DNA of 63,910 bases, filler included. It is 6 parts of 6 records of this genome, joined end to end, with 100 filler letters (N's around TTAATTAATTAA, not from the genome) between each part and the next. Parts side by side here need not be neighbours in the genome. Positions count along the whole stretch, not along the records: positions 10,094 to 33,325 come from SRR31147125_2584; 5 more parts are not named here. The stretch is one strand, 5' to 3'. Below are positions 10,094 through 34,190 of this stretch, piece after piece. The notes beneath the pieces were generated by a model. That model searched no databases. It saw nothing but the letters and a program-made list of their open reading frames with translations, and was not told the DNA's origin. Each line of letters begins with the position of its first letter. The first letter of the stretch is position 1. The position numbers and the translations under genes are program-made.

Positions 10094-10123
10094 TGGACGC
10101 GGGTTCGACTCCCGCCATCTCCA
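10094..10123 (+). ncRNA. ssrA: 3' end of tmRNA (or an att-site duplication of it)
   Basis: GGAC-GCGGG-TTCGACT-CCCGC-CATCTCC-A: T-arm plus acceptor strand with U70/A73 alanine identity; 5' part lost at contig edge; CCA not encoded (CCC follows). Confidence 0.72.
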
Positions 10124-14636: not shown

Positions 14637-17003
14637 TTATATCTCTTTCAAGTTTGGATTAAACCTATATTCTTTCCCTATTTTCGTTTCCAACTCAATT
14701 TCCTTGTCGCCATATTTCAATTTGCAAGGCTCGCCTTTTAGCGATTTTACGATAACCTCAACCATTTTCCCATCGCTCCATTCAATATCAATTTCAAAAG
14801 CACCACGAGCCCTCAAACCTTTGACCTTTCCATCGGGTAAAGCCGTGGGCAGCGCAGGCAAAATGTGCACACAACCGGCATGGCTTTGCAACAACATTTC
14901 GGCAATGGCCGAGGTGCAACCAAAGTTGGCATCGGTTTCCCACATTTTACGCGTAATGCCCTGTACACTTATGGCAAACAGGTTGGGATACGAACTGTTG
15001 GCAATCATATATTTTAGAATATCGTAGGCTTTATCGCCTTGTAGTAAACGTGCATAACTTTGGCAAATCCAGGCGGTATTTCCACGAAAAACAGGAGTTT
15101 GTGCGCTTCCATTTTCAACACGGTAATCCAGCGATTTTAATGCGGCATTCGCCAGTTTTGGAGTTCGCAAAGGCGTAATTATATTTCCCTCGCAGGCGCC
15201 CCATAAATGAGCCACGTGTTTGTGCCCGGGCTCCACTTCCTTAAACGGTTCCATCCATTCTTGCAAACGTCCGTTTTTATCAATTTGTAAGGGCTGCAAA
15301 CGCGCTTTCATTTGTGTTAAAATATTTCGGAAATCGTTGTCAGAATTCAACACCTTACTTGCTTCAATACAGTTGTTGAATAAGTCGGCAACAAACTGCG
15401 TATCCATTGTTGGCCCCATAGATTGTGACGATTGCTGACCATTTGGAGCAATAAAAGTATTTTCGGGCGAGGTTGCCGGTCCGGTTACCAAATACCCGGT
15501 TTTGGGATATTCAACCAAATAATCCACAAAAAACTCAGCCGCTTCTTTGATTATCGGGTACGTCTTGTTTTTCAGATAGTCTATATCGCGGGTAAACAAA
15601 TAATGTTGCCACATTTGGTGCGCTCCCCAGGCAGGTGTCATTACCCACATGCCATGCGTTGGACGCCCAACTGCTCCCGTAAAACGCCAGCCATCGGTAG
15701 CATGATGCGCCACAAAACCTTTGGCCCTATAAGTTATTTTTGCCGATTTTCTACCGGCAGGTCGCAATTCATCTATTAAATCAAAAAAAGGTGTATTACA
15801 CTCAGCCAGGTTACAAACTTGTGCCGGCCAGTAATTCATCGGAATATTTATGTTGGTGTGGTAATCGGCATTGTACCATGGATCGATAGTGTTAATCCAC
15901 TTGCCCCAAAGATTAATGGCTTGTGTTCCCGGCCGCGAACTTGAAATTAAAAGGTAACGTCCAAACTGAAAATACAGGGCAATCAACTCAGCATCGGGAA
16001 TTCCCTGACGAAAAACCTCAATGCGTTTATCGGTTGGCAATTTGGCAACTTTAGTGGGTCCCATTCGCCTTATTTTTTTGGTTTGAGGCAATTCAAGCTC
16101 TACCCGGTTAAAAAGTCTTTGGTAATCATTTACATGATCTGCCAATATTTCTTCGTACGATTTATTCGAAATTGATTGAAATTGTTGATTACACTTTTCA
16201 TGAGGATTATCGCCTCGAAAATCAGTTGCAGAAACAATACGAATTTCAACTTCTCCGGCATTTTTTATACGAATGCCATTATTAATTGCAGAAAGCTCAC
16301 CTTCTTTTACAAGAATTTGAATTTGAGCCTCGTATGAAACGCCTCCTGAATTTGGATTTCCTTTATCAGTAGCTTGTCCCGAAACAATAATCTTATTGCC
16401 GAAAACATTTACTGCTGACTGTTCGCGATTAAAAACAGCATCGAAATTCAACTGCCCTTTTTTATCACTCCCTAACCGAATAATTATCATCTGGTCAACT
16501 GCACTTGAAAATAATTCACGCTTAAAATTAACATCGTCCATTTTGTATGAAACACTGCTTATGGCTTTATCTAAATCCAATTCGCGGCGGTAATCATTAG
16601 CTTCTGCGTGTTTATTTTCATATTCGAAATATAAATGCAAATCGCCCAAAGTTTGATAGGTATGCACGCCATGAGCATGGTGCGGTAACATCATTTTATC
16701 GTTTACCAACTTTTCTGCCTTTTTATATTCGCCATTGAATAAAAGTTGCCTTATTTCATCCAGGTATTTTGCGCCCTCAGGATTGTCTTTGTTTTCGGGT
16801 TTGCCGCTCCAAATTTCATCGTTGTTTAGTTGAATAATTTCGTGATGAACGCCACCCTGATTGGTTGCGAGCAAACGGCCGTTGCCAATTGGTAAGCTTT
16901 CTACCCATTCGCGGGCTGGGTGTTCGTACCAAAGTTTTAGGCCTTGGCCCTTAGCTTGCCCTAGACAGAGGATTAGGATTGTTATTAGAAATGTTATTCT
17001 CAT
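14637..17003 (-). CDS. GH95 alpha-L-fucosidase / alpha-L-galactosidase family
   Basis: LWYEHPA..W.ESLPIGNG, YFQFGRYLLISSSRPG, DYHTNINIPMNYW, SPEN, HKHVAHLW, AEMLLQSH, GLRARG. Confidence 0.92.
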   Translation of the reverse strand: MRITFLITILILCLGQAKGQGLKLWYEHPAREWVESLPIGNGRLLATNQGGVHHEIIQLNNDEIWSGKPENKDNPEGAKYLDEIRQLLFNGEYKKAEKLVNDKMMLPHHAHGVHTYQTLGDLHLYFEYENKHAEANDYRRELDLDKAISSVSYKMDDVNFKRELFSSAVDQMIIIRLGSDKKGQLNFDAVFNREQSAVNVFGNKIIVSGQATDKGNPNSGGVSYEAQIQILVKEGELSAINNGIRIKNAGEVEIRIVSATDFRGDNPHEKCNQQFQSISNKSYEEILADHVNDYQRLFNRVELELPQTKKIRRMGPTKVAKLPTDKRIEVFRQGIPDAELIALYFQFGRYLLISSSRPGTQAINLWGKWINTIDPWYNADYHTNINIPMNYWPAQVCNLAECNTPFFDLIDELRPAGRKSAKITYRAKGFVAHHATDGWRFTGAVGRPTHGMWVMTPAWGAHQMWQHYLFTRDIDYLKNKTYPIIKEAAEFFVDYLVEYPKTGYLVTGPATSPENTFIAPNGQQSSQSMGPTMDTQFVADLFNNCIEASKVLNSDNDFRNILTQMKARLQPLQIDKNGRLQEWMEPFKEVEPGHKHVAHLWGACEGNIITPLRTPKLANAALKSLDYRVENGSAQTPVFRGNTAWICQSYARLLQGDKAYDILKYMIANSSYPNLFAISVQGITRKMWETDANFGCTSAIAEMLLQSHAGCVHILPALPTALPDGKVKGLRARGAFEIDIEWSDGKMVEVIVKSLKGEPCKLKYGDKEIELETKIGKEYRFNPNLKEI

Positions 17004-17055: not shown

Positions 17056-17172
17056 GGCGCATGGTTACGGCAGTTTTTCAAACTATTCTTTTTGATGCGC
17101 CTTTCTTGATTCCGTTGTCGTAATCTCCGGGTTGAAACCCGGGGGTATTCATGTTAAATCCCTACAGGATTA
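17056..17172. repeat. ~117-nt intergenic repeat, copy 1 (two hairpins)
   Basis: GGCGCAT...ATGCGCC; CCGGGTTGAAACCCGG; TATTCATGTTAAATCCCTACAGGATTA; similar to 19545-19660. Confidence 0.75.
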
Positions 17173-19510
17173 CATCTTCTTCAACTTCCCATTAAATCTA
17201 TATTCTTTTCCTTTTTCAGTTTTGAATTCGATTAGCTTATCACCGTAATTTAGTTTGCAGGGTTGACCATCGGTGGATTTAATTTTTACCGATTGTAGTT
17301 TGCCTTCTTTCCAGTTCAAATCTACGTCGAAGCCACCTCGTGCTACCAGGCCTTTAACACTTCCTGTTGCAAGTTCTTTGGGTAGTGCCGGTAATAAATT
17401 GACATAGCCTGCATGACTTTGCAACAACATTTCGGCAATAGCTGATGTTACTCCGAAGTTCACATCGGTTTCGAACATTTCGCGTGTGCGGCCGCGTTCG
17501 CCAACAGCAAACAGGTTATCCCACGAACTTTTTGCCAGAATTTTATTGATTTGACTGTAGGCTTTTTCGCTTTCCAGCAAACGCACATAGCTACAAGTTA
17601 CCCAGGCGGCTATTCCCTGGTATTCGGGCGAGTCGGCAGTACCATTTTCTACACGAACATCCAGCGATTTTCGGGCAGCTTCAAATAATTCAGGTGTTTC
17701 TTCGGTAATCTGATTTCCGGGGCAAAGTCCCCACAAATGTGAAATATGACGATGCCCTTTGTGAAGTTCCTCAAATGGTTCTGCCCATTCCAGCAATCGT
17801 CCATCTTCACCAATTTGCATGGGCATTAAACGGGCCTTTAACTTTTTCAATTCAGCCCTAAAATATTCGTCTACACCCAAAACTTTACTGGCTTCAATCG
17901 TATTGCTAAATAAATCAAAAAGCAACTGATTATCCATGGTTGGTGCCATTGAAAGCGAAACCACTTTGCCGTTTGGAGTTATAAAACGATTCTCGGGCGA
18001 AGTGGATGGCCCGGTTACCAGAACCATACTTTGGATGTTCAACCAAATAATCGAAAAAGAATTCGCATGCTTCTTTCATGATTGGATAACTGGTATTTCG
18101 CAGATAATTCTTATCCCTACCGAATAAATAATGCTCCCACATGTGCTGACATCCCCAGGCTGGAGCCATTGGCCAGGTTGCGTAAGGAGGATTTCCTTGC
18201 AAAGCGGTGTAATACCAGGCATCGGTAGCATAGTGGGCAGTAAAACCACGGGCGTTGTAGGTTTCTTTTGCTGTTTTTCGCCCATTCGTTCGCAACGAAT
18301 CAATTAAATCAATAAATGGTTCCTGACATTCGCTAAGGTTGCACATTTCTGCCAACCAATAATTCATTTGAATATTTATGTTGATGTGATAATCGGCATC
18401 GTAAGCAGGAGCTAAACCCTGCACCCATTTTCCCCAAAGGCTAATTGCCATTGAACCGGGGCGCGAGGCACTCATTAATAAATATCGCCCAAACTGGAAA
18501 TAAAGCTCGATAAGTTGCGGGTCTGCGGCACCATTTGCAAAAGCTTTCAGACGTTTATCGGTTGGAAGTTTAGCATTTTCTGATGTTCCCAAATCCAAAT
18601 CAACACGTTTAAATAAACGTTGATACTCGGCAATATGCTGGGCTTTTATGTTCTTAAAACTTTTACCGTTTATGGCACCTAATCTTTCCTCACAAATATT
18701 TGAAGGGTCTTCCCCGTAGTAATTTGTTGCCCCCACCAATTTCAAGGTAACTTTTGTAGCATTTACTACACCAATTCCTTTTGGCAATTGATTTACATTA
18801 CCATCATAAGCCTGCACTTCCAACTGTCCTTCGTATTCAACTCCCGCCCAACCTGTTACTTGAGTCGAAATTGCCGTACCGTTCATCGAAATACGATTAT
18901 TGTTGATGTTCGTAACCAAAGCTCCTTTGCGTGAAAGGCTTACATTAAATGAAAGTGCTCCCGGTTTATCAGAACTTAGCTGCACTATTATGGCGTTATC
19001 AACCGGGCTTGAAAAAACTTCGCGGGTGTATGTAACATCACCTTTTTTGTAACTCACTTTTACAATCGCGGTTTCTAAATCAAGCTCGCGACAATAATCC
19101 TTTACCTCTGCCGAATTAGGGTAGGAAAACTTTAGGTCGATATTCCCCAATTCCTGATAAGTATGCACACCAATTGGAAGCCGAAAACCATTCATTTTTG
19201 CCTTAACCATTCTTTCTGCTTCCCAGTATTTTCCATTGAACATTAACTGCCTTATTTCATCCAAATTTTTCCAGGCACCGGATTTGTCGCGTTCTATATG
19301 TCCACCGGTCCAAACGGTTTCTTCGTTAATCTGAATCTTTTCCTGCTCTATTCCACCTTGTACCATTCCCATAAGTTTGCCGTTTCCAATTGGAAGCCCG
19401 GCTGTCCACTCCTTGGCAGGTTGTTCGTACCAAAGTTTTAAATTTTGGGAGAAACCGGTGAAAGAGCTTACGAGGATTAGCAGTAAAACTATTGATTTAA
19501 GTTTATTCAT
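17170..19510 (-). pseudogene. Second GH95 gene split by a frameshift near 18022 (pseudogene or sequencing error)
   Basis: ORFs 17930-19510 and 17170-18042 together give a full GH95 colinear with 14637-17003; junction HPKYG|LVTGPSTSPEN versus paralog YPKTGYLVTGPATSPEN. Confidence 0.85.
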
Positions 19511-22855: not shown

Positions 22856-25516
22856 TTATTCTATTTCGTTCTCATACTCCAAATCGATAAAGCGTAATGA
22901 ACCGGCAGGAACTTTCAAATTCATTGTTCCGTTTTCGATTGAAACTTTTTCGCCACTTAAAATATCCGTAGCTTTTTTTACTGAATTATTTTGTAAGGTA
23001 ACTACAACATTGCTTTCTGCCGGGTCTATATAACCAGGGTCAACCAACACTAAACGAATGTGCTTTTCATCGATACGAATGGCACTCCACGAAGATCCTT
23101 TTACCACAACTGGTAGTTCTGAGGCACCCATTTCAGCTGTTTTTTTCATCACCTCACCAAAGTCTTTGGCAGCAACTTTTTTACCGTCTACCAAGCCCTG
23201 TTTCCAATCGCTAACTACATATGGAATGTTGCTTTTCTTCAATTGACTTTCTGTTTCAATTGGTGCAACCGGAATCATTCCATAGGGCAACGGGGGTGTA
23301 AAATTCAACCAACGATAATCTACTCCCAACATTTTTGAAAAATCGTATTCAGGCACATTTGTTCCCGCCCAGCAAAGCTTTCCATAAGCTATTACAGCAT
23401 CATCGTCGTGCTCATCGTAAATGGTTAAATCATGACCAGTGCTTACTCCTTCAACCACTTCGTGGTCAACATCTTTTATTAAGTGCCACGAACCTATGGA
23501 AAGAATATCTTCTTTTTCCACAATAGGTAATGCTCCCGATTTCATCAAAGCAAAAAGAATATTCATCCCCGGATTTTCAAGGTATCCGATTGGAAAAATT
23601 AGTCCGTAACGACCGCCGTAAGCAGCATACATTACACCACTTCGCAAATAAGGAGAAACGGAACGTTGCCCACCCGGACTGTGCGGTCTCCAACAGGTTG
23701 GATTATCATCCACAAGCCGCATGGCAAAATCATCGACATAACCTGCCGAAAACATTCCCGAACGACCACTGAAATTTAATTCCTGAGTACGAGCATTTGT
23801 ATCTTCAGCTGCCGGCACTAATACATCGCTATATTTTCCAGAAAAGAACATACGTTTCCAAGGCTCAGTATGAGAATTTGCTGCCCAAAAAATATTCTTG
23901 TAGCGGAAATAGAGCTTCGCCTTTCCATGTTTTCTGCAGGCTGCTGCTAAACGAGGCACATAATTATCTACAAAATAAATGTATCGTGGGTCGGTAGAGT
24001 TTTCCATTTCGGCATAGGTAAAACCATAGCACATGGTTGGTGCCACTTCCAAAATCTTCTCCATGGTTTCGATAGACACATAAAAGGGATCATTTCCATG
24101 ACCTGTCCAGGCCACAAAAGAAATTCCATCTTTTTCCAATTGCGCTGCTTCTTTTAAAATTTCTTCCTGTGATTGAACATATTCTCTGCGATGGTCTTTT
24201 TGAAGCGCCACGTCGCCCATCAATTCAACCAAATGGCTGCGGTCAAAATTTTCAGTAAAATTATGCTGACGGATGTATTTTACACCGGCTCCTTTAAGTT
24301 TTCCCAGCTCCGGTAATTCTTCAATATTGGTAATCATTACCCAATCTTTTTCTGCCTTTTTTTGATAAACGGGAGGTGTAAAATTGAGTGTCTGTTTATA
24401 AAGTGTCTCCAGATTTTCTTCAACATTGGCTAAACGACCTTGTAATTTGTGTTCCTTTTTCCACCAATTCTTTTCATCAAGCGAAGTAAAATAAATGCTA
24501 TTTCCACCACCTATTTGACCAATTCCAATTAGCTGATTCGATTCAGGTTCAAAAACAATATCATTAAAAATAATTCCACGGTGCTTTTCTCCTGATTTAT
24601 GGATAAGATTTCCTTGCAAATCGGTTACGTATTGAATTCCGCCATATTGCATAACAATTTGATTCTGGTTTGGCAGGAGTGTTGTTCCTATTCCATGCGC
24701 ATAACGTTGTTTGTCTTTGGAGCCTCCAACAAAATTAAGTACTTGCTTAAAGCTATCATCCATTCCATAAATAAAACCTCCGTTGGGTACATGCCCTATA
24801 AAAAGTACATCATCCAAACCATTTTTATCCAGATCTGCTATTTCGTGGTTGTTAATCATAAAACGGCTCCACGATTTAGGTAGCTTTTTATTTTGTTTGA
24901 TTACCGATTTATCCTCAGCATTCAAAAAGCCGTTAAACATCCAACGGAATTTGTCGTGTTGATAGGTCATCAGATAAATCGATTGTTTGTCTTTCTCCTG
25001 AAAATTACCGGTTTCTAAAATTCGTATCGTTCCTTCGATAGCTGTTTTACCTATCAATTTTCCATTGGTGTCAATTTCGTACAGATTAAAGTCGTTCCCT
25101 CCTGCGAGGATACTAGTCTTTTCCTCCTGTTTTAGTACAGCCAGTTCATTAAAACGAACTTTATGACCGGGATTAAACTTCCAGAGCAGTTCACCTTTCG
25201 AACTCCAGCAGTACACATTTCCATCGGCACTTGCTGCAAGTAAATCGTCGTTGCCATCGCCATTAATATCTTCTGCTTCAATTTCAAAAGGAACTGCTTT
25301 CCCCTCGGTTCGGTTCTTCCATTTTAACTTTCCACCAAGAGTATAGCACAAAACGGAGCCATTAATTTCTGAAATAAACAAAACAGTTTCCTTATCGACT
25401 TTTCCAACAACTGCATTTCTGATGCTATTGCCATCAACCGTAAAATTTTTCGCTGCTTTTGTCTGAATAAAAATAAGACATAAAGCAATAACTATGTAGG
25501 TTTTAATCTTACTCAT
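22856..25516 (-). CDS. Lambda-carrageenase-like protein (GH150), divergent paralog
   Basis: N-terminal PQQ/FG-GAP propeller (DINGDGNDDLLAASADGNVYC); GHGNDPFY, FRYKNIFW, VPAAEDT, DNP, LVDPGYIDP and RFIDLE are colinear with 28479-31397. Confidence 0.78.
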   Translation of the reverse strand: MSKIKTYIVIALCLIFIQTKAAKNFTVDGNSIRNAVVGKVDKETVLFISEINGSVLCYTLGGKLKWKNRTEGKAVPFEIEAEDINGDGNDDLLAASADGNVYCWSSKGELLWKFNPGHKVRFNELAVLKQEEKTSILAGGNDFNLYEIDTNGKLIGKTAIEGTIRILETGNFQEKDKQSIYLMTYQHDKFRWMFNGFLNAEDKSVIKQNKKLPKSWSRFMINNHEIADLDKNGLDDVLFIGHVPNGGFIYGMDDSFKQVLNFVGGSKDKQRYAHGIGTTLLPNQNQIVMQYGGIQYVTDLQGNLIHKSGEKHRGIIFNDIVFEPESNQLIGIGQIGGGNSIYFTSLDEKNWWKKEHKLQGRLANVEENLETLYKQTLNFTPPVYQKKAEKDWVMITNIEELPELGKLKGAGVKYIRQHNFTENFDRSHLVELMGDVALQKDHRREYVQSQEEILKEAAQLEKDGISFVAWTGHGNDPFYVSIETMEKILEVAPTMCYGFTYAEMENSTDPRYIYFVDNYVPRLAAACRKHGKAKLYFRYKNIFWAANSHTEPWKRMFFSGKYSDVLVPAAEDTNARTQELNFSGRSGMFSAGYVDDFAMRLVDDNPTCWRPHSPGGQRSVSPYLRSGVMYAAYGGRYGLIFPIGYLENPGMNILFALMKSGALPIVEKEDILSIGSWHLIKDVDHEVVEGVSTGHDLTIYDEHDDDAVIAYGKLCWAGTNVPEYDFSKMLGVDYRWLNFTPPLPYGMIPVAPIETESQLKKSNIPYVVSDWKQGLVDGKKVAAKDFGEVMKKTAEMGASELPVVVKGSSWSAIRIDEKHIRLVLVDPGYIDPAESNVVVTLQNNSVKKATDILSGEKVSIENGTMNLKVPAGSLRFIDLEYENEIE

Positions 25517-26939
25517 ACCTCAAATTGTATTTCGAATCCAATGTTGGTTCATTAAACTTTTTCATTCGCGATTTTAAAGCTTTCATCATTTGTTTTGAAG
25601 CTTTCTCGTATCCGGGTGCGTTATAAACATTTACAATTTCATGAGGGTCGTTTTCCAAATCGAATAACCAGGGCTCGTCGCTATCCGACACGACTAATTT
25701 GTACTTACTACTAACCGATGCAACCCAGCCATTCGCAGAGCCTGACATATGTGTAATTCTATCGCTTTTAACCACTTTCTGCTGGTTTTCAAAATCCGGT
25801 GCTGTATTTTCTCCATGAAATTTCGCATCAGATTTAATATCCATCAATCCCAATAAAGTTGGAAGCATATCTACATTACAATATGCTTTTTCCATCACCT
25901 TTCCGGCTTTTATTTTTTCGGGATAACGAATTACAAAAGGAATTTTCGTTGAAGCTTCGTAAGCATTTCCCTTATTCATACGGTTGTGTTCGTAAAACAA
26001 ATCGCCATGGTCCGAGGTAAAAATGATGATGGTATTATCAACCAGTTTATTTTCATCCAGAAAAGCAAGAATATCGCCCACTTTATCGTCGATATGTTTT
26101 ACCATTCCGAAGTATTGTTTTAACGCTTCGGGCTTAAAACCTTTGGCTTCATTTTTATCTCCTTTTCCCCAATTCGGCTTTTTTGCCACAAATGCCGGTA
26201 ACATGGATTGAGGCTTTTCCAACTCCAAATTATCGTACATCGAGCCATAAGGTTCGCGGGCATAATCGGGAGTATGTGGGTCGGGAATTGATACGATAAG
26301 AGCAAATGGTTTATTCTTATCCCGCTCCAGAATTTCAAGTGTTTTTTCAGTAAAATAATCGGTCATGTGAATAACCTCGTTTTCGGGCAATCCCTTAACC
26401 TGATTTTTATTCATTGCCTCAATTCTCTCCTCTGTAATGTGAAAATACGGATTATGACCGCGTGTCATCATGTAACGATAGTCGGCAAAACCAGCCGGAT
26501 ATTTCACATTAAATCCGTACTTCTCAGATTCTTCAAGGTGCCACTTTCCCAAATAAGATGTAGAATAGCCATTTTCGTTTAGGATAGTAGCAAGGGTCGG
26601 GATGTCTTTACGGAAATTGTCGTTGTTTTTATAAACATTGGTTGCCTGACGATACAAACCCGAAATCATTGAAGCACGCGATGGCGAACATACCGGAGTT
26701 GAAGCATAATAATTCATACAAATTGCACCTTCCTCGGCAATTCTGTCAATGTGTGGAGTTTCTACTCCATTTCCTTTCCCCCAAACATAAGCCTCGGCTT
26801 CGGGCAAGTTATTACGGTAACAACTTAATGTTCTGAAGTTGTGCTCATCGGTATGTATAATTAACAGGTTAGGTTTCTGTGCCTGCAATCCAGAGAAAGC
26901 GAAAAGCACGATAAAAAAAATGATGAAGATTGTTTTCAT
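25509..26939 (-). CDS. S1 sulfatase (Cys-type)
   Basis: IHTDEH, CSPSR, GKWHL, PDPH, TSDHG; SPI signal peptide. Confidence 0.9.
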   Translation of the reverse strand: MKTIFIIFFIVLFAFSGLQAQKPNLLIIHTDEHNFRTLSCYRNNLPEAEAYVWGKGNGVETPHIDRIAEEGAICMNYYASTPVCSPSRASMISGLYRQATNVYKNNDNFRKDIPTLATILNENGYSTSYLGKWHLEESEKYGFNVKYPAGFADYRYMMTRGHNPYFHITEERIEAMNKNQVKGLPENEVIHMTDYFTEKTLEILERDKNKPFALIVSIPDPHTPDYAREPYGSMYDNLELEKPQSMLPAFVAKKPNWGKGDKNEAKGFKPEALKQYFGMVKHIDDKVGDILAFLDENKLVDNTIIIFTSDHGDLFYEHNRMNKGNAYEASTKIPFVIRYPEKIKAGKVMEKAYCNVDMLPTLLGLMDIKSDAKFHGENTAPDFENQQKVVKSDRITHMSGSANGWVASVSSKYKLVVSDSDEPWLFDLENDPHEIVNVYNAPGYEKASKQMMKALKSRMKKFNEPTLDSKYNLRYE

Positions 26940-27323: not shown

Positions 27324-28472
27324 TTATTGTTTTAATAATTTTTGCTTAATTAAATTTTGTTTCCCTTCCATTATCAATACATATAAGCCATTGGGTAAAT
27401 CCAAATTGCTTGTATTCAAAACAAATTCTTGCATTTCATTTTTTATATTTCTCTGCAAAATAATTCTTCCCCAAACATCAATTAGTATTACACTTTCAAA
27501 ACCGTAGTTTGGCGATACTGAAACTTTAAGTTCTTTGTCAAACGGATTCGGGTAAACCTTAATTTCCTGTGCATTTTTTTTAACAGGCTGAATAGATGTG
27601 ACAACATCTTCAAACGATATATCATCGATAAAAAACGTTCCTGTTCCGCCTCCAAAGGTGGTGTTATTTGGCATTTCAATTTTGATACCTGTATTAATAT
27701 TTTCAGGCAAATCAATGTTCTGACTTAACTCAATCCATGTGCCTTTTGCAAGCCCACTTATATCCCAGCGTTGCAGCTGCCAGGGTTCTTTTAAAATCGT
27801 ATTAAATGCTGAGATAGTTGTTTCCGGTTCAATCCAAACCTTCAGCTTCATTTCATATTTTCCAGCATCCAGTTCTATGGTATTATTCTCGGTGGTTTCA
27901 ATGCTGCTTATGTAAGGAATCAGAGGTTTCTCTTCTTCTACATATCCCCAAATCTCAATATCGTCGATGTAAAAAGTGCCTTGCCCGCTACTTACAACCA
28001 TCATTAATTTCGAATCTGTCACAGCCTCGTCAAGTACTATTTCCTGCGATAATTCTACCCACTTTCCTGTTTCAGCTTTTTCTAAATTCCAGATAATGTT
28101 TTTCCAGGGTGTTTTTATGGTAGTTTGAAAGTTTGAAATACTTGCTGTACTATCGAGCCAAACTTTCAGCTTCATGGTGTAGGTTCCGGGCGCTAAGTTT
28201 ATTAGCGAGCCCTCAAAATCCTCGTCTCCGGCATGCGCCTTTAAACTTGTTGATACACTTGTAGCACTCGAAAATTTAATAGAATAAGTTCCGTTTGCAG
28301 CTTTTTCGTTGGTAACGTTCCAATTATCGGGGTGCTGCATCCACCATGCATCGCCGCCTGCCTCGAAACCAAAGTATTGTTCGGGAAGTAGGTTTTTCAG
28401 AACCAATTGTGCCGACAAAACTCCAGGCAACAGAACAATAAAAATCAACAATATGAATTTAGTCTTTGCCAT
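27324..28472 (-). CDS. T9SS cargo protein with one complete and one N-terminally truncated CBM-like beta-sandwich
   Basis: Signal peptide; GFE...FYIDDI repeats; C-terminal Por sorting domain IKVYPNPF...GLYVL...QKLLKQ. Confidence 0.82.
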   Translation of the reverse strand: MAKTKFILLIFIVLLPGVLSAQLVLKNLLPEQYFGFEAGGDAWWMQHPDNWNVTNEKAANGTYSIKFSSATSVSTSLKAHAGDEDFEGSLINLAPGTYTMKLKVWLDSTASISNFQTTIKTPWKNIIWNLEKAETGKWVELSQEIVLDEAVTDSKLMMVVSSGQGTFYIDDIEIWGYVEEEKPLIPYISSIETTENNTIELDAGKYEMKLKVWIEPETTISAFNTILKEPWQLQRWDISGLAKGTWIELSQNIDLPENINTGIKIEMPNNTTFGGGTGTFFIDDISFEDVVTSIQPVKKNAQEIKVYPNPFDKELKVSVSPNYGFESVILIDVWGRIILQRNIKNEMQEFVLNTSNLDLPNGLYVLIMEGKQNLIKQKLLKQ

Positions 28473-28478
28473 TCATAT

Positions 28479-31397
28479 TTATTGTAAAGGTTCGCTTAAT
28501 TCAATATCAATAAAGCGGAACATGCCGCAGGATACTTCAATTGTTAAATCGGAGCCGGAAGCATCGAATGTTTCACCGTCGAGAACATCTTCCATTTTTA
28601 CCGGATTAATGGTATGAAAAGTAATTTTTGCTTTTCTATCGTCGGGATTTAAGTAGCCACCATCGATTAAAGTTAATCGCAAATGAGTTGGCGATGTTTG
28701 AGCAAGCACCCATGCAACTTTACCCGTAACGGTAAGCGGCAATTTGCTTGCACTGTTTTTAATGTCGTTTTCGATGGTAGTGAAGTACTCATCGGCGGCA
28801 TAAGTTTGTGTGCCATCGGCTGAATAGTAGTTTCTACCGTCGGTATAATATTCCTTTAAAATGTTTTTATAGATGGGATGAAGCCGGTCTTTTAATGCTC
28901 CACGTGGTGCATCTTTATCAGCATGAATGCCATTTTGTGGCGGGGTAATTAGTACTTTCCCGTTTTCGTAGGGTGGCAAAAAATTGGAGCGACGTTCGTT
29001 TACTCCCGCTGCATATTTCGAGAAATCCCAATCGGTAACAGGTGCGGCTGGCCACGAACCATTTAAGCGACTAAAAACAAAGGGGTTGTTTTCTTCAAAT
29101 TCCTGATCGTAAAAAGTACTCCACTTAACATTACTGGCTTCGTTCATATAGTGTTCGTCGGGTTGAAGCATACTTAGATGCACCGGTGAAAAACTCAAAA
29201 TTTCGTTGGCTTTTGGAACGTACAACGCACCTTTTGCAATTAGTTCCCACAACAGGCACATGTATTCGGGATTGGTTGCAAAATTATTGATGTATTGCGC
29301 ACCATTTGCAATGCTGTAAATACTGTGCCTCAAAAAATGATTGGGAACTATTTGATGACTAAACTGACGAGAGCGGTCGTAGCTCGGATTATCGGGGACA
29401 CTGCGCGAGCCCCAGCCATTAACTGCTCCGCTTGCCCAAATTCCTAAACGACCAACCAAACTCAGCTCCATACTTTTGTCGGTAGTTTCTTCCATCGAGG
29501 GTACAAAAACATCGGCAAATTCGCCCGACATTAATCGCGACCACATGGGCAAGTAAATATTCGACTGCCAAAACGCATGTTTAGTCCGCACATAAATATT
29601 CGCATTTTTATCTTGTGCATATTGTGCCAAAGGATAAAATAAATCATTCATTACCCAGGCAAAATCCTCGGTGTGGTCTTCCAATTCAGGATAAGTGAGA
29701 ACTGTTTTTCTGCCATCGGCAAAATCGAGCACCTGTTTTGTGGTAGATAATTGCCACATGTATGGGTCGTTTCCATGTCCTCCCCAATAGGCAATGCCGG
29801 GGTAACCCTCGTACCACGAAGTTATCAGGTCGACCGATTGTTGCTGGGTTAAAACATAATCGCGGCGCTGATCGCGTTTGTTTTTATACTTTTCGTTCTC
29901 CATTTCGGAGCGGTCCCAGTTTTCGGCATCGCCGGTGTGGGCACCGTTTAAAATTACCGGACTGTTGTAATTTTCGATAATATTATTTGCTACTGCCGAT
30001 GATTTCTGGGTGTCGTATTTTTCTGTCATTAAATAAACCGGCAAAGGTTCGCGTTCCCAGGTCGGCTTTTCAAAGCCATTTAGATTCTCCCAAACGGTTT
30101 CCGTATTTGCAAGAATTTGACTCATTTTACCTTGCGGAGCAATGTTTTTATACGACTTTTTCCACGCCTCGTTTTTGGTATCTAGAATATGAATACAACT
30201 GCCACCACTTTGCACACTTGCCAAAATAATGTTATCGTCTGAATCTTTCCATAAATCGTTAAAAGAGTGCGAGCTTTCTAATCTTTCCGCTTCACTTTCG
30301 TTAAAATCGAGTGGAACCAGAAACATACGATTACCCACCAAAAACAAATATTTTTGACTATTGCCGTCCGGAATAAGTTCGCACTGTGTTACCGAGTAGC
30401 CAAATCCCAGGTTTTCTAATTCGTACTGAGTCATTGAACCATCTTCGGAATTCATTTTCACCACAGCCATATTATTATGATGCCCCGATGTCCCCATTAA
30501 AATATCAGGTGAATTATCACCGTTTCCATCAAGAATACGAACATCGCCAATAACCGTCTTTGCATCAACCTTGGTATTTATAAACGGCAAATCGGCAAGT
30601 ACTTCAAACTGATAAATGGTACCTTTTACCTGCATGTGGTTGTTCGTTCCGTGTTGAACCAATATTTCTGTGCCATCCGATTTTTTCATGGATCGCAAAA
30701 AATTGGCAACATGTACATTGTTGGGTGGAAGAATTCCAGTTCCCCATGTTTTTTCAACGGAATAGCCTGATGATTTTATTTCCTTTACTAAAGTTCCACT
30801 TGCCGACAAATAGTAAATACTCATATCGAAACCACCACAAACAACATAAGAATCAGTACCCTTTTTTACCACACAAACCGTGTACATTGGGGCGCTGTTC
30901 TTTTTAAACTGCCACAATAATTCTCCTTTTGAATTGAGACAATAAACGGTGCCATCGGCGTTGGCGGTTAAAATCTCGTCGTTACCATCGCCGGTAATAT
31001 CGGCACACCACAAATCCTGGCTCATAAAACCCGAAAGCTTGTTTTTCCAGATAATACTTCCGTCGTAAGCAATAGCCATTACAATCCCCTCGTAGCTGCT
31101 TGCAATTACATATTTGTTCTCGTTGAATTGTGCTGTTCGGACTTTGCTTATTGTGTGTTTGGTATCAATGCTAATTAATCCGCTAGCAGCAAAATCGTTA
31201 TTCGCATTTTTATCGAGAGTAAACTTTAAGCTGTAACTGCCAGATGCAGCAAGGTCATTACTTACCGATAAATAATCTGAATGATTGGTTGTCCATCCAT
31301 TTTCGGCATTTTCGAACCCAAGAAATTCCTGGGCTTGTATGTGCTTTGAAAAAACAAATGTTGTAAGAATGAAAAGATAAATAAAAGTATGCTTCAT
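28479..31397 (-). CDS. Lambda-carrageenase (GH150, CglA-like) with an N-terminal CBM fragment
   Basis: Extensive similarity to the recalled Pseudoalteromonas CglA sequence (ISKVRT, SYEG, LSGFM, QSGGS, ENWDRSE, GHGNDPYM, MEETTDKSME, DNPSYDR, FSRLNGSWP, HLRLTL.D.GYLNP); start placed at MKHTF signal peptide. Confidence 0.88.
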   Translation of the reverse strand: MKHTFIYLFILTTFVFSKHIQAQEFLGFENAENGWTTNHSDYLSVSNDLAASGSYSLKFTLDKNANNDFAASGLISIDTKHTISKVRTAQFNENKYVIASSYEGIVMAIAYDGSIIWKNKLSGFMSQDLWCADITGDGNDEILTANADGTVYCLNSKGELLWQFKKNSAPMYTVCVVKKGTDSYVVCGGFDMSIYYLSASGTLVKEIKSSGYSVEKTWGTGILPPNNVHVANFLRSMKKSDGTEILVQHGTNNHMQVKGTIYQFEVLADLPFINTKVDAKTVIGDVRILDGNGDNSPDILMGTSGHHNNMAVVKMNSEDGSMTQYELENLGFGYSVTQCELIPDGNSQKYLFLVGNRMFLVPLDFNESEAERLESSHSFNDLWKDSDDNIILASVQSGGSCIHILDTKNEAWKKSYKNIAPQGKMSQILANTETVWENLNGFEKPTWEREPLPVYLMTEKYDTQKSSAVANNIIENYNSPVILNGAHTGDAENWDRSEMENEKYKNKRDQRRDYVLTQQQSVDLITSWYEGYPGIAYWGGHGNDPYMWQLSTTKQVLDFADGRKTVLTYPELEDHTEDFAWVMNDLFYPLAQYAQDKNANIYVRTKHAFWQSNIYLPMWSRLMSGEFADVFVPSMEETTDKSMELSLVGRLGIWASGAVNGWGSRSVPDNPSYDRSRQFSHQIVPNHFLRHSIYSIANGAQYINNFATNPEYMCLLWELIAKGALYVPKANEILSFSPVHLSMLQPDEHYMNEASNVKWSTFYDQEFEENNPFVFSRLNGSWPAAPVTDWDFSKYAAGVNERRSNFLPPYENGKVLITPPQNGIHADKDAPRGALKDRLHPIYKNILKEYYTDGRNYYSADGTQTYAADEYFTTIENDIKNSASKLPLTVTGKVAWVLAQTSPTHLRLTLIDGGYLNPDDRKAKITFHTINPVKMEDVLDGETFDASGSDLTIEVSCGMFRFIDIELSEPLQ

Positions 31398-31496: not shown

Positions 31497-33152
31497 CTAT
31501 TGTCTTGGTTCCAAAGGAATAAGCTGTATGTCATCCACATAAATCAAGTGGTCTCCGCTTGCATCCATATTGTCTTCCGGCGATACCCAAATTCCATATT
31601 TTTCGGTTGGCGCTTCTGCAAACTCTACTTTTTTACTTAAAGTAACCCATGTACCTTTTTCAATATTGCTAATATCCCAGGTGTTTATGTACCATGGAGT
31701 GCTCATATAAGTGCGAATTGCCTGTAAATTGCTATTTACATCAACATAAACTTTAATTTGCTCGATGTATGGCCCGGCAGGAGCAACAGCACCGGCTGCA
31801 AGGAAATTCTTCATGTAAATTTTCTTGTCTGTCACAGTTCCGGCAGAAGTATAGCTCATACTTGCAACACCACTTGCTTTTACATCTTCGGAACGTGCAT
31901 AAACAACAGGAGATTGAGCTCCAACCCAGAAACCGGTGGCATAACCATGTTTTACATTTGTACTGGCGGTTTCGAAGCCATAATTTGCATTTAATACATT
32001 GGTAGCGCTAATGTGCATTGTTACCAATTGGTCGGCAAAAGGTTGAAGTTCTCTTAAATCGAGCGATTTAATATTCGCACCGGCGTACGCTATTGAAATG
32101 CTATCGGTATTAAATATTGGTGCAGCTAATTCCAACTCAATTAGAGTTGCATCATCGTTGCTTATCTTGGTAGTTTTCACCTCAATCATTTCATCGAATC
32201 CTGCTGCCGAATTAACAACATGAACAGAAAAATTAGCCTCTTCACCCGAGAATGGAGAAACCTCGCCCGACACATTAAATCCAATATTTCCATTTTCCAG
32301 TTCTTTCGCTTTTCCCGAGAATTCAAATGGTTCCGAAGATTGAATAACTTCCACCAACAAAGGAATTACTTTTGTGGTAGAACCGGCTGGTACCAATTCT
32401 CCTGTTCTGCTTGCGGTTATGCTTCCACCAACACTTGTTCCCATTTTAAAGAATGCAATTTCGGCTACCGAGTCGCGGCTTGTGGCAGGAACACCATCTT
32501 CAATATCCCACTGAACGCGGTTAGGGCGACCAACGTTGGTCATATCTACATAGGTTAGTTTTTGCCCAACCTCTAAAGTAACTTGTGTCCAACCCGCTTG
32601 ATTTTCGGCATCCGGCTCATCATCAGCCAGCACTTCCAAAACCATTGTTTCATCCTGATAAATGCGAAAGGCTGGTTGTATTGTTGCATAAACATCAATC
32701 ATAAAAGTGGTATCTATTACCCAAAAATCTCCTTCTTTTACAGCGGTTATTGTATCTTCTTCGGAATAAAAAGTTACTTCTGAGTTGAATGTATTATAAA
32801 GGTTTATCGATTTTACTCCGGGTTCGGTAAACAACACATGCACATTGGCATCTTCTGTTGTGTTTCCGGTATTGGGGATGATAAAATCGGTATAAACCGA
32901 ATCGTCTTGTGAAAATCCAGTACTTAGCAGTAAACACCCCTGGTCGAGTGTCCATTTATGCGTTAATGTACCTTGCGATAAATCAAGAAATGAAATATAA
33001 TCGTCTTGTGCAATTTGCAACATAGAGTTCGTTGGCTCAGCGCTTAGTGTCCACTCAATATCCGATAATTCGAATGGTGCTTCATATTCATCAGTGCACG
33101 ACATAGCAATAATGAGCATTGCTAATATTGATATTATTTTTATGTTCTTCAT
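31497..33152 (-). CDS. Surface glycan-binding lipoprotein (SusE-positioned; PKD-like domains plus C-terminal CBM-like domain)
   Basis: Lipobox AMSC followed by acidic TDEYE; directly downstream of susD; C-terminal YGFE...IYVDDIQL domain. Confidence 0.75.
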   Translation of the reverse strand: MKNIKIISILAMLIIAMSCTDEYEAPFELSDIEWTLSAEPTNSMLQIAQDDYISFLDLSQGTLTHKWTLDQGCLLLSTGFSQDDSVYTDFIIPNTGNTTEDANVHVLFTEPGVKSINLYNTFNSEVTFYSEEDTITAVKEGDFWVIDTTFMIDVYATIQPAFRIYQDETMVLEVLADDEPDAENQAGWTQVTLEVGQKLTYVDMTNVGRPNRVQWDIEDGVPATSRDSVAEIAFFKMGTSVGGSITASRTGELVPAGSTTKVIPLLVEVIQSSEPFEFSGKAKELENGNIGFNVSGEVSPFSGEEANFSVHVVNSAAGFDEMIEVKTTKISNDDATLIELELAAPIFNTDSISIAYAGANIKSLDLRELQPFADQLVTMHISATNVLNANYGFETASTNVKHGYATGFWVGAQSPVVYARSEDVKASGVASMSYTSAGTVTDKKIYMKNFLAAGAVAPAGPYIEQIKVYVDVNSNLQAIRTYMSTPWYINTWDISNIEKGTWVTLSKKVEFAEAPTEKYGIWVSPEDNMDASGDHLIYVDDIQLIPLEPRQ

Positions 33153-33190
33153 TTTAATATTTTTATAATGATAAACGTGATTGAAATTAC

Positions 33191-33325
33191 CTAATTAGAG
33201 ATATTAGGATTATTCAATGTCTCTGATAATGGTATTGGGAAATAGTAATGAGCACTTTCTACAAAGTTTTGCGAAGCCACTTCGTATTCATTCAACTGAA
33301 AGCCAAACGATGCAGGTTCTTCTTT
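33191..33325 (-). CDS. SusD/RagB family lipoprotein, 3' end only
   Basis: In-frame translation ends ...AHYYFPIPLSETLNNPNISN*, the typical SusD C-terminus; not in the ORF track. Confidence 0.8.
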   Translation of the reverse strand, partial: KEEPASFGFQLNEYEVASQNFVESAHYYFPIPLSETLNNPNISN

Positions 33326-33425
33326 NNNNNNNNNNNNNNNNNNNNNNNNNNNNNNNNNNNNNNNNNNNNTTAATTAATTAANNNNNNNNNNNNNNNNNNN
33401 NNNNNNNNNNNNNNNNNNNNNNNNN
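33326..33425. other. Artificial contig spacer
   Basis: N-run with central TTAATTAATTAA. Confidence 0.97.
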
Positions 33426-34190
33426 CTTGGCTTATTGCACATGGAAATTATTCAAGAACGATTGGATCGTGAGTTTGATATGAATGTGATTACTACCGTT
33501 CCCAACGTTTCATACATAGTACATACTACCGATGGTGAAGAGATTACTGTTTACAATCCATCAGGTCTTCCTCCATCAACCAAAGTTGAAGGAATTGATG
33601 AGCCTTATATTCGCGCTCAAATTATTACCAAGGCTGATTTTATTGGGCAGGTAATGACTTTGTGTTTGGAAAAGCGTGGAACACTTTTAAAACAAGATTA
33701 CCTAACAACCGAACGTACGGAATTAACTTTTGATCTGCCATTGGGTGAGATTGTCTTCGATTTCTATGATAAGCTAAAGTCAATTTCAAAAGGGTATGCT
33801 TCATTTGATTATCATATTTCGGGTTACAAGCCTGCAAAACTTGTTCGTCTGGATATTCTTTTAAATGGTGAAATGGTGGATGCCCTTTCATCGTTAATCC
33901 ACTTTGACAATGCGTATACGCTTGGTCGCCGCATGTGTGAAAAGCTGAAGGAACTGATTCCAAGACAACAGTTTGATATTGCCATTCAGGCAGCAATTGG
34001 TGCTAAAATTATTGCCCGCGAAACGGTAAAGGCTGTGCGTAAAGATGTAACTGCCAAATGTTATGGTGGCGATATTACCCGAAAGCGTAAGCTGCTTGAA
34101 AAACAGAAAAAGGGTAAAAAACGCATGAAGCAGGTAGGTAATGTTGAGGTTCCACAAAAAGCTTTCCTTGCCGTGTTGAAACTGGATTAA
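33426..34190 (+). CDS. lepA: Elongation factor 4, 5'-truncated
   Basis: [38 protein letters not shown]. Confidence 0.96.

Follow-up and report, generated by a model that had tools for sequence, protein, structure and literature searches.

A carbohydrate-binding domain divided between a GH150 lambda-carrageenase and its T9SS-tagged neighbour: a candidate for domain complementation in trans

Glycoside hydrolases (GHs) exported through type IX secretion systems (T9SS) ordinarily have their catalytic module, a carbohydrate-binding module (CBM) and the C-terminal sorting domain (CTD) fused in a single polypeptide. Assembly from separate chains is known from the cellulosome, where enzymes are recruited through cohesin–dockerin pairs, and from donor-strand complementation, which operates in chaperone–usher pili as well as in the type V pili of Bacteroidota such as FimA/Mfa1. 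Here we describe two adjacent genes which together appear to encode one CBM in two pieces, the first at the N-terminus of a GH150 lambda-carrageenase without a CTD ('the enzyme') and the second in a CTD-bearing protein next to it ('the adaptor'). The pair lies in a stretch of DNA of 63,910 nucleotides ('the window'), i.e. six joined parts with 100 filler letters between each part and the next; positions 10,094 to 33,325 come from SRR31147125_2584, and parts that stand side by side need not be neighbours in the genome.

With ordinary T9SS hydrolases this locus shares that catalysis, carbohydrate binding and a T9SS tag are aimed at one polysaccharide, but the functions reside on two polypeptides and the break falls inside the CBM itself; long CBM–CTD proteins also occur in our data set (P0179 and L108 5015-8143). 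The likeness to pili would consist in an incomplete beta-sandwich that is completed, in the periplasm or on the surface of a Gram-negative bacterium, by strands of another polypeptide. Pilus subunits, however, donate one strand and polymerise, whereas here about a third of a domain (three to four strands) would come from the enzyme and be received, one to one, by an adaptor that is not a pilin, in a binding proposed from sequence. As in cohesin–dockerin systems, an enzyme would dock non-covalently on a CBM-bearing, surface-anchored scaffold; yet cohesin and dockerin are two complete domains that each fold by themselves, whereas the docking pair considered here would be parts of one domain. Finally, there is a resemblance to the hitchhiker co-export of the small and large subunits of hydrogenase by the twin-arginine translocation (Tat) pathway, as cited in the review PMC9251779, in that a folded protein lacking an export signal would, in our proposal, cross a membrane together with a signal-bearing partner. 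In contrast to Tat hitchhiking, this would involve the T9SS and the outer membrane, with a C-terminal domain as the signal and with partners joined by the rebuilding of one domain rather than by an ordinary subunit interface.

The evidence begins with the complementarity of the two pieces. Enzyme residues 23-60 align with residues 31-68 of the adaptor, i.e. with the start of its first CBM, without a gap and with 15 of 38 positions identical (E = 2e-9, for that single comparison), which bears out the gapless match that had been noticed from the sequence alone. From 201 copies of the domain in the fetched proteins we derived a 156-position profile of the CBM family, on which the enzyme piece covers positions 6-56, the second repeat of the adaptor 60-154 and its first repeat 2-156. 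The piece does stand directly behind the signal peptide, as the sequence-only reading had it, but it is longer than the 37 residues given there and runs to about 50 (residues 23-72); the claim that the second repeat is devoid of just these strands holds on the profile. By this measure the two pieces do not overlap and jointly span the domain, each lacking what the other has, with the break falling after the strand 'SYSLKF' and before the one that follows it in the fold. Other pairs are equally complementary, for example at profile positions 2-53 and 61-154 in L001 and 5-55 and 60-153 in L010.

The enzyme carries all three GH150 domains of Pfam above their gathering thresholds (Beta-prop_CGLA, 444.5 bits against a cut-off of 26.8, residues 96-405; CGLA_M, 667.5 bits against 27, residues 493-862; CGLA_C, 118.4 bits against 27, residues 889-966) and is 52-65% identical to the 120 GH150 homologues listed out of 325, some of which are named lambda-carrageenase by their sources. 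On these grounds it is assigned to the GH150 lambda-carrageenases, with endo-hydrolysis of the beta-1,4 bonds of lambda-carrageenan as its predicted activity. Cleavage of lambda-carrageenan is known for other members of the family, as far as the accessible parts of PMC12549532 and PMC11202985 describe it. Those parts report three-domain AlphaFold2 models of GH150 with no crystal structure of the family and mention no N-terminal CBM piece (PMC12549532), and an enzyme from Maribacter vaceletii which lacks the fragment (PMC11202985). No match to PF18962 (Por_Secre_tail) or TIGR04183 at E <= 0.1 was found in the enzyme with Pfam and NCBIfam, in line with the earlier statement that it has no T9SS domain; its C-terminus is occupied by CGLA_C, a domain of the GH150 family itself, so that it does not have the make-up of T9SS type A cargo. 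Its signal peptide, modelled by AlphaFold2 as a helix at residues 2-17, contains no cysteine (no lipobox) and is therefore read as type I and not as that of a lipoprotein.

The adaptor, by contrast with the enzyme, has both a hydrophobic N-terminus of its own and a sorting domain at its very C-terminus (residues 306-382 of 382; PF18962, 37.8 bits against a cut-off of 27; TIGR04183, 37.7 bits against 23), as expected of T9SS type A cargo and as first read, and the 6-nt distance between the two genes can be counted directly from TAA to ATG. Its AlphaFold2 model has a mean predicted local distance difference test (pLDDT) of 92.6 with 41 aligned sequences, and the blocks of the complete CBM reach 94-98. 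This CBM (residues 23-177) superposes on residues 1-146 of the CBM16 module 2zew_A with Z 14.0 and a root-mean-square deviation of 2.9 over 135 aligned of 146 residues, and similarly on CBM61, CBM4-2 and CBM22 modules (2xom, 2y64, 4xup), i.e. it is modelled as a beta-jelly-roll of the kind common to these families. Unlike those modules, it stays below the Pfam cut-offs (residues 35-173: CBM_4_9, 19.5 bits against 25.9; CBM_4_9_1, 22.9 bits against 27), and no chain in the PDB matches it by sequence at E <= 0.1; the predicted likeness is thus one at the level of the fold only. Because the complete CBM superposes on the whole of CBM16, the part absent from the truncated copy should be integral to the fold. 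In the model of the enzyme (mean pLDDT 92.5, 83 aligned sequences), that same part appears as just two short strands (43-46 and 56-59): the pLDDT of successive ten-residue blocks over residues 21-70 is 45, 54, 69, 72 and 47 and rises to 87 or more from residue 71. The fragment is thereby the only low-confidence stretch of the mature enzyme and, by this prediction, is not on its own a confident part of it.

The second line of evidence is the company which the fragment keeps. We scanned the six-frame open reading frames (ORFs) of 76 genome loci around GH150 genes (from the best 80 of 220 matches) and of the window with profiles, which gave 99 GH150 matches or, after two partial ones had been dropped, 97 full-length ORFs. 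The fragment is present in 19 of these and absent from 78, seven of the latter being distant paralogues. A gene for a truncated CBM with a CTD lies directly downstream of 16 of the 19, with a complete CBM preceding the truncated one in ten adaptors and the truncated CBM alone in six, and beside none of the 78, on either side. Genome searches added five fragment-bearing genes, all of which adjoin a truncated adaptor, with the adaptor upstream in three, so that altogether 21 of 24 fragment-bearing enzymes have one next to them (18 downstream and three upstream). Gene order differs between genomes, the two pairs of Saccharicrinis aurantiacus running from adaptor to enzyme and the two pairs of Wenyingzhuangia fucanilytica from enzyme to adaptor. 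Among the 18 enzyme-then-adaptor pairs from other genomes, 14 have a spacer of 0-11 nt (start codons assigned by rule of thumb).

Copy numbers follow the same pattern. The eight genomes of the genus of W. aestuarii contain 1, 2, 1, 1, 0, 0, 0 and 0 truncated adaptors and identical counts of fragment-bearing GH150 genes; one of the zero-count genomes holds a fragment-less GH150. Five more genomes, with one fragment-less GH150 apiece, yielded matches to complete CBMs only and no truncated adaptor, and in three genomes every other CBM–CTD gene that was inspected proved to have complete CBMs. These patterns lend good support to a functional connection of the fragment with the truncated CBM. The sequence-only reading, which had proposed strand complementation and piggy-back secretion, therefore stands as far as the two pieces belonging together is concerned (21 of 24 versus 0 of 78, matched copy numbers, both gene orders, tiny gaps and, as shown below, retained fold residues), including its expectation that they would co-occur in homologues; binding and joint secretion would be steps beyond these data. 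Read-through or frameshifting that would yield one polypeptide was considered and rejected, given that the adaptor starts with a conserved signal peptide of its own and is upstream of the enzyme in three pairs.

The split itself is widespread. The 120 listed GH150 homologues (534-1701 aa) fall into two length classes, about 40 with the N-terminal fragment (31 found by a strict pattern and nine by eye, from the late start of the core) and about 80 without it. The fragment shows the motif [YF]xFE...W...W...K..G..SLK[YF] ahead of the common core 'LYSIETGHTIxKVRTA'. On the side of the adaptor, a search of 1.84 billion representative proteins returned 346 matches (E <= 0.001), the top 150 of them listed. 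Scanning 156 relatives (representatives from that list plus 11 matches of another search) identified a CBM in 138, and in 50 of these 138 a domain starts at profile position 45-68, counting one scrap that starts at 103; the remaining 88 have complete domains starting at positions 2-15, bar a few weaker repeats. Many of the truncated proteins are 200-245 aa long and comprise no more than a signal peptide, the cut CBM and a CTD. As 50 of 138 share one start region while the other 88 are mostly complete, the split site looks discrete and widespread rather than the outcome of random decay. Judged by these homologues, we are dealing with a conserved two-gene system of many marine bacteria, seen in Flavobacteriaceae, Marinilabiliaceae and Cyclobacteriaceae and in a metagenome-assembled genome titled Bacteroidaceae. 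Single fused GH150–CBM–CTD proteins, which had been suggested as something to look for, were not found, whether as a GH150 ending in a half-CBM and a CTD or as an adaptor with a GH150 inside it, among the 120 of 325 homologues, the 97 GH150 ORFs (read from stop to stop) or the 156 adaptor relatives. Nor did a word-based search of low sensitivity with enzyme residues 21-75 place the fragment on other enzyme families, its five candidates all lying above E = 0.01.

Half-only adaptors were also sought by other routes. A divergent group (P0211, P0253 and P0273) combines signal peptide, truncated CBM and CTD without the usual IPxxSxIxT leader. For this group, a metagenome scan with an alignment produced a single match, which was to the CTD, and among 401 genomes of the class a search recovered just the adaptor of W. 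aestuarii, known already. A profile search with half-only adaptors in five genomes was swamped by CTD matches and pointed to the two Saccharicrinis pairs.

Third, the fragment appears to be under selection. In 39 fragment-bearing enzymes, which are 52-65% identical to that of the window, mean pairwise identity over residues 23-62 is 0.36; the signal peptide and the linker (63-75) each score 0.21 and the catalytic domains 0.54-0.68. No variation occurs at E29 and G53 and hardly any at F28 and W35, and F28, E29, W35, G53, S56 and K58 match the positions F36, E37, W44, G61, S64 and K66 conserved in complete CBMs. One would not expect a tail without use to retain residues that define a fold, and their retention thus suggests selection on the fragment.

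Taken with the domain architecture of the two proteins, these observations lead us to a reading to which we give slightly better than even chances, i.e. that the two pieces rebuild one beta-sandwich in trans and thereby attach an enzyme without a tag to cargo of the T9SS, with co-export as the probable purpose. A single carbohydrate-binding beta-sandwich would be encoded by two co-translated genes, whose products would both reach the periplasm via Sec. There, the N-terminal strands of the enzyme (about 50 aa) would insert into the incomplete sandwich of the adaptor, resulting in a non-covalent enzyme–CBM–CTD unit. The CTD of the adaptor would take this complex to the T9SS, through which it would most likely be carried to be displayed or released outside, where the CBM or CBMs of the adaptor would hold the enzyme on polymeric lambda-carrageenan. 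Sequence complementarity, conserved pairing and selection on the fragment can be read from the genomes and their alignments; mutual binding, a meeting in the periplasm and co-export of the complex are what we infer from them, with physical complementation being plausible and co-export one step further. More specifically, split-domain docking might let the T9SS export a CTD-less cargo, with the rebuilt CBM–enzyme complex crossing the translocon as one folded unit, a tentative proposal which we rate somewhat short of even odds. The T9SS is described as moving folded proteins in the review PMC9251779.

The alternative that survives best, in our view unlikely but of considerable weight, is that the split is a relic of one rearrangement and that its products do not interact today. 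A GH150 gene could, for instance, have landed inside a CBM–CTD gene, or a domain-insertion protein could have been split in two. The latter fission, which had been named from the outset as the other possible explanation, may account for the origin, but no fused form turned up and fission alone would leave the long retention of both pieces unexplained. In such a scenario the fragment would be a tolerated N-terminal tail and the truncated CBM a stable smaller binding protein exported by the T9SS, and their adjacency would stem from a shared operon.

Several results weigh against complementation in trans, and four of them (the confident model of the truncated CBM, the weak complex score, the possible single origin and the low number of contrasts) also favour a relic. 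The truncated CBM is modelled confidently by AlphaFold2 alone (block pLDDT 88-98), so that it may be a self-sufficient smaller domain. Folding of the second CBM by itself had been put forward as an outcome that would contradict strand complementation, and the model does predict this; yet a confident model of a domain that has been cut says little about its stability and the point is not decisive. When adaptor residues 178-300 were modelled together with enzyme residues 23-75 (ESMFold2, without alignments, three controls), the scores were 0.57, 0.35 and 0.36, i.e. a median of 0.36 versus 0.02 for the best control, with the runs sharing at least 72% of contacts and a partner pLDDT of at least 51. 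An interface between the pieces, as anticipated, thus gains weak support, with the score in the weak band of this test. The mark of the test is reached by 51 of 78 solved complexes and by 2 of 108 mismatched pairs; with scores of 0.60 or under, it is reached by only 5 of the 78 solved complexes and by all four mismatches that passed (of 180). A pass in this band would be more often wrong than right unless the guess had been likely beforehand and, since both chains are pieces of a common fold, it may partly reflect the memory that the model has of the single-chain CBM.

The number of independent events is small as well. In a FastTree tree of 90 GH150 cores, from which the fragment columns had been removed, the fragment-bearing enzymes form two clades, A with 14 bearers and four nested non-bearers and B with five bearers and one non-bearer; a quick IQ-TREE run on 44 rows returned the same clades with an SH-aLRT of 99 each. 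At least five state changes are needed on the tree, of which well-supported branches force only three. As a tree that unites both clades is not rejected (approximately unbiased (AU) test, p = 0.216), a single origin of the split followed by three or four losses is possible. There are only three independent contrasts, too few for a sign test, in which the adaptor changes in the same direction two or three times and never in the opposite one; much of the co-occurrence could therefore be the inheritance of one rearrangement. Half-only adaptors are found basally in clade A and all through clade B, for which reason the pair probably began in its minimal two-piece form, with the complete first CBM added later. 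Distances in the fragment correlate with those in the truncated CBM (mirror-tree r = 0.47; partial r = 0.28 given the enzyme core, p = 0.003), but the fragment tracks the CTD about as well (partial r = 0.26), which makes this signal non-specific. Three fragment-bearing enzymes (L002, L003 and L046) have no adaptor next to them; each time there is one elsewhere in the same genome or gene cluster, i.e. directly upstream of a second fragment-bearing GH150 in the genome of L002, broken across two contig ends in that of L003, and in the L017 pair, 15 kb away in the same gene cluster, for L046. Finally, a full-text literature search, with subscription journals largely outside its reach, found no report of a split CBM or of T9SS co-export of an untagged partner.

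To the four points in favour of a relic can be added that the fragment is less conserved than the catalytic core. A relic does not readily explain, however, why fold-specific CBM residues persist in enzymes that are otherwise only 52-65% identical, why all five fragment-less enzymes nested within the fragment-bearing clades are also without an adaptor, why adjacency survives an inversion of gene order and copy numbers match within one genus, or why truncated adaptors were seen only beside fragment-bearing enzymes.

A further possibility, which we regard as quite improbable, accepts binding but not co-export. The enzyme would leave the cell by another route and dock on the surface-anchored adaptor, or the complex would act in the periplasm, so that the split domain would serve assembly at the surface, its halves docking as cohesin and dockerin do, rather than act as a ticket for secretion. 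Everything that argues for binding argues equally for this variant, and since fragment-less GH150 enzymes of the same phylum have no CTD either, another route or a periplasmic role must exist for those enzymes; the literature searched is also silent on T9SS co-export. On the other hand, the enzyme has a plain Sec signal only and no lipobox cysteine, the genes are coupled and both proteins would enter the periplasm together, where a complex with a CTD-bearing partner would presumably meet the T9SS anyway. That the fragment acts within the enzyme, as a cap, pro-segment or linker on the beta-propeller with a merely historical likeness to CBMs, is very improbable, for although it is fused directly to the first conserved strand of the propeller, it remains poorly modelled there despite 83 sequences, about 80 of the 120 listed homologues and 78 of the 97 ORFs in the loci manage without it, and its link to the truncated adaptor would go unexplained.

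Complete CBMs also occur near GH150 genes that lack the fragment. In clusters of Wenyingzhuangia and Ochrovirga (L010 5413-9890, L014 3263-8333, L029 4102-8394 and L048 4000-8350), genes with complete CBMs precede a fragment-less GH150. In L014, L029 and L048 one product, about 450 aa long, has two complete CBMs, and its related representative P0008 carries a CTD; a product of about 185 aa in L010 and L014 has a single complete CBM. Going by these annotations, split and unsplit CBM proteins coexist within one cluster. In L006 (9235-9738) and L055 (9231-9740), a gene upstream of a fragment-less GH150, at a distance of 74-93 nt measured from stop to stop, encodes a protein of 168-170 aa in which a complete CBM follows a signal peptide. 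A deletion in an arrangement of this type could in principle give rise to an enzyme with an N-terminal piece of a CBM.

The coordinates of the pair and of the lipoprotein gene upstream are listed in table 1. All belong to a head-to-tail run of five genes on the minus strand, which encode the 551-aa lipoprotein, the GH150 enzyme, the adaptor, a sulfatase and a distant GH150-like protein, and further sulfatase and GH95 genes continue this carrageenan cluster. The lipoprotein has the lipobox AMSC followed by an acidic TDEYE and no Pfam match; it resembles the adaptor (BLASTP E = 7e-11), with its CBM covering profile positions 3-151, and is probably a surface glycan-binding protein of the cluster. 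The distant GH150-like protein (22856-25516, minus strand; 886 aa; CGLA_M 202.8 bits) is encoded by a gene that overlaps the upstream sulfatase gene (25509-26939) by 8 nt, and the same paralogue accompanies GH150 genes in L003, L004, L022, L023 and L053. One GH95 gene (17170-19510, minus strand) is present as two overlapping ORFs, 17930-19510 comprising the N-terminal domain and the first 215 of 408 positions in the catalytic profile and 17170-18042 profile positions 214-408 plus the C-terminal domain, which points either to a frameshifted pseudogene or to a sequencing error; an intact GH95 gene adjoins it at 14637-17003. In the window, the 5' end of the cluster abuts the 3' part of lepA (33435-34190, plus strand; EFG_C and LepA_C, 251 aa), and the GC content drops to 0.33 around 32500-34000. 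The lepA remnant and the GC drop may mark the boundary of an inserted island.

Table 1. Features of the enzyme–adaptor pair and its upstream neighbour, in window coordinates.
Feature	Position	Strand	Basis
GH150 lambda-carrageenase gene, 972 aa from ATG at 31397	28479..31397, stop included	-	Pfam
Enzyme signal peptide, residues 1-22, ...HIQA/QE	31332..31397	-	read from translation; cleavage site inferred
Enzyme CBM fragment, residues 23-72, N-terminal third of the CBM fold	31182..31331	-	pairwise alignment, CBM profile
6-nt spacer, enzyme stop codon TAA to adaptor ATG	28473..28478	-	read directly
Adaptor gene, 382 aa: signal peptide, complete CBM, N-truncated CBM, T9SS C-terminal domain	27324..28472, stop included	-	
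Adaptor complete CBM, residues 23-179	27936..28406	-	CBM profile positions 2-156
Adaptor N-truncated CBM, residues 182-292, with conserved leader IPxxSxIxT	27597..27929	-	profile positions 60-154 only
Adaptor T9SS type A C-terminal sorting domain, residues 306-382	27327..27557	-	PF18962, TIGR04183
Upstream 551-aa lipoprotein ending in a complete CBM; context only, outside the split pair	31497..33152	-	BLASTP, CBM profile

In current accounts, a protein has to carry its own C-terminal sorting domain in order to be a T9SS cargo. Two conserved genes, one of them with a sorting domain, which share one broken fold make co-export of a non-covalent complex a testable idea. If true, this would count as the first T9SS hitchhiker route to be described, and it would explain how an endo-carrageenase that has no CTD and is not a lipoprotein reaches a polymer which is unable to enter the periplasm. 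It would also provide a compact and portable tag of about 50 aa, together with a matching adaptor, for the surface display of foreign proteins in marine Bacteroidota. Even without co-export, a domain that is kept split between two proteins across several bacterial families would be an unusual case of protein evolution.

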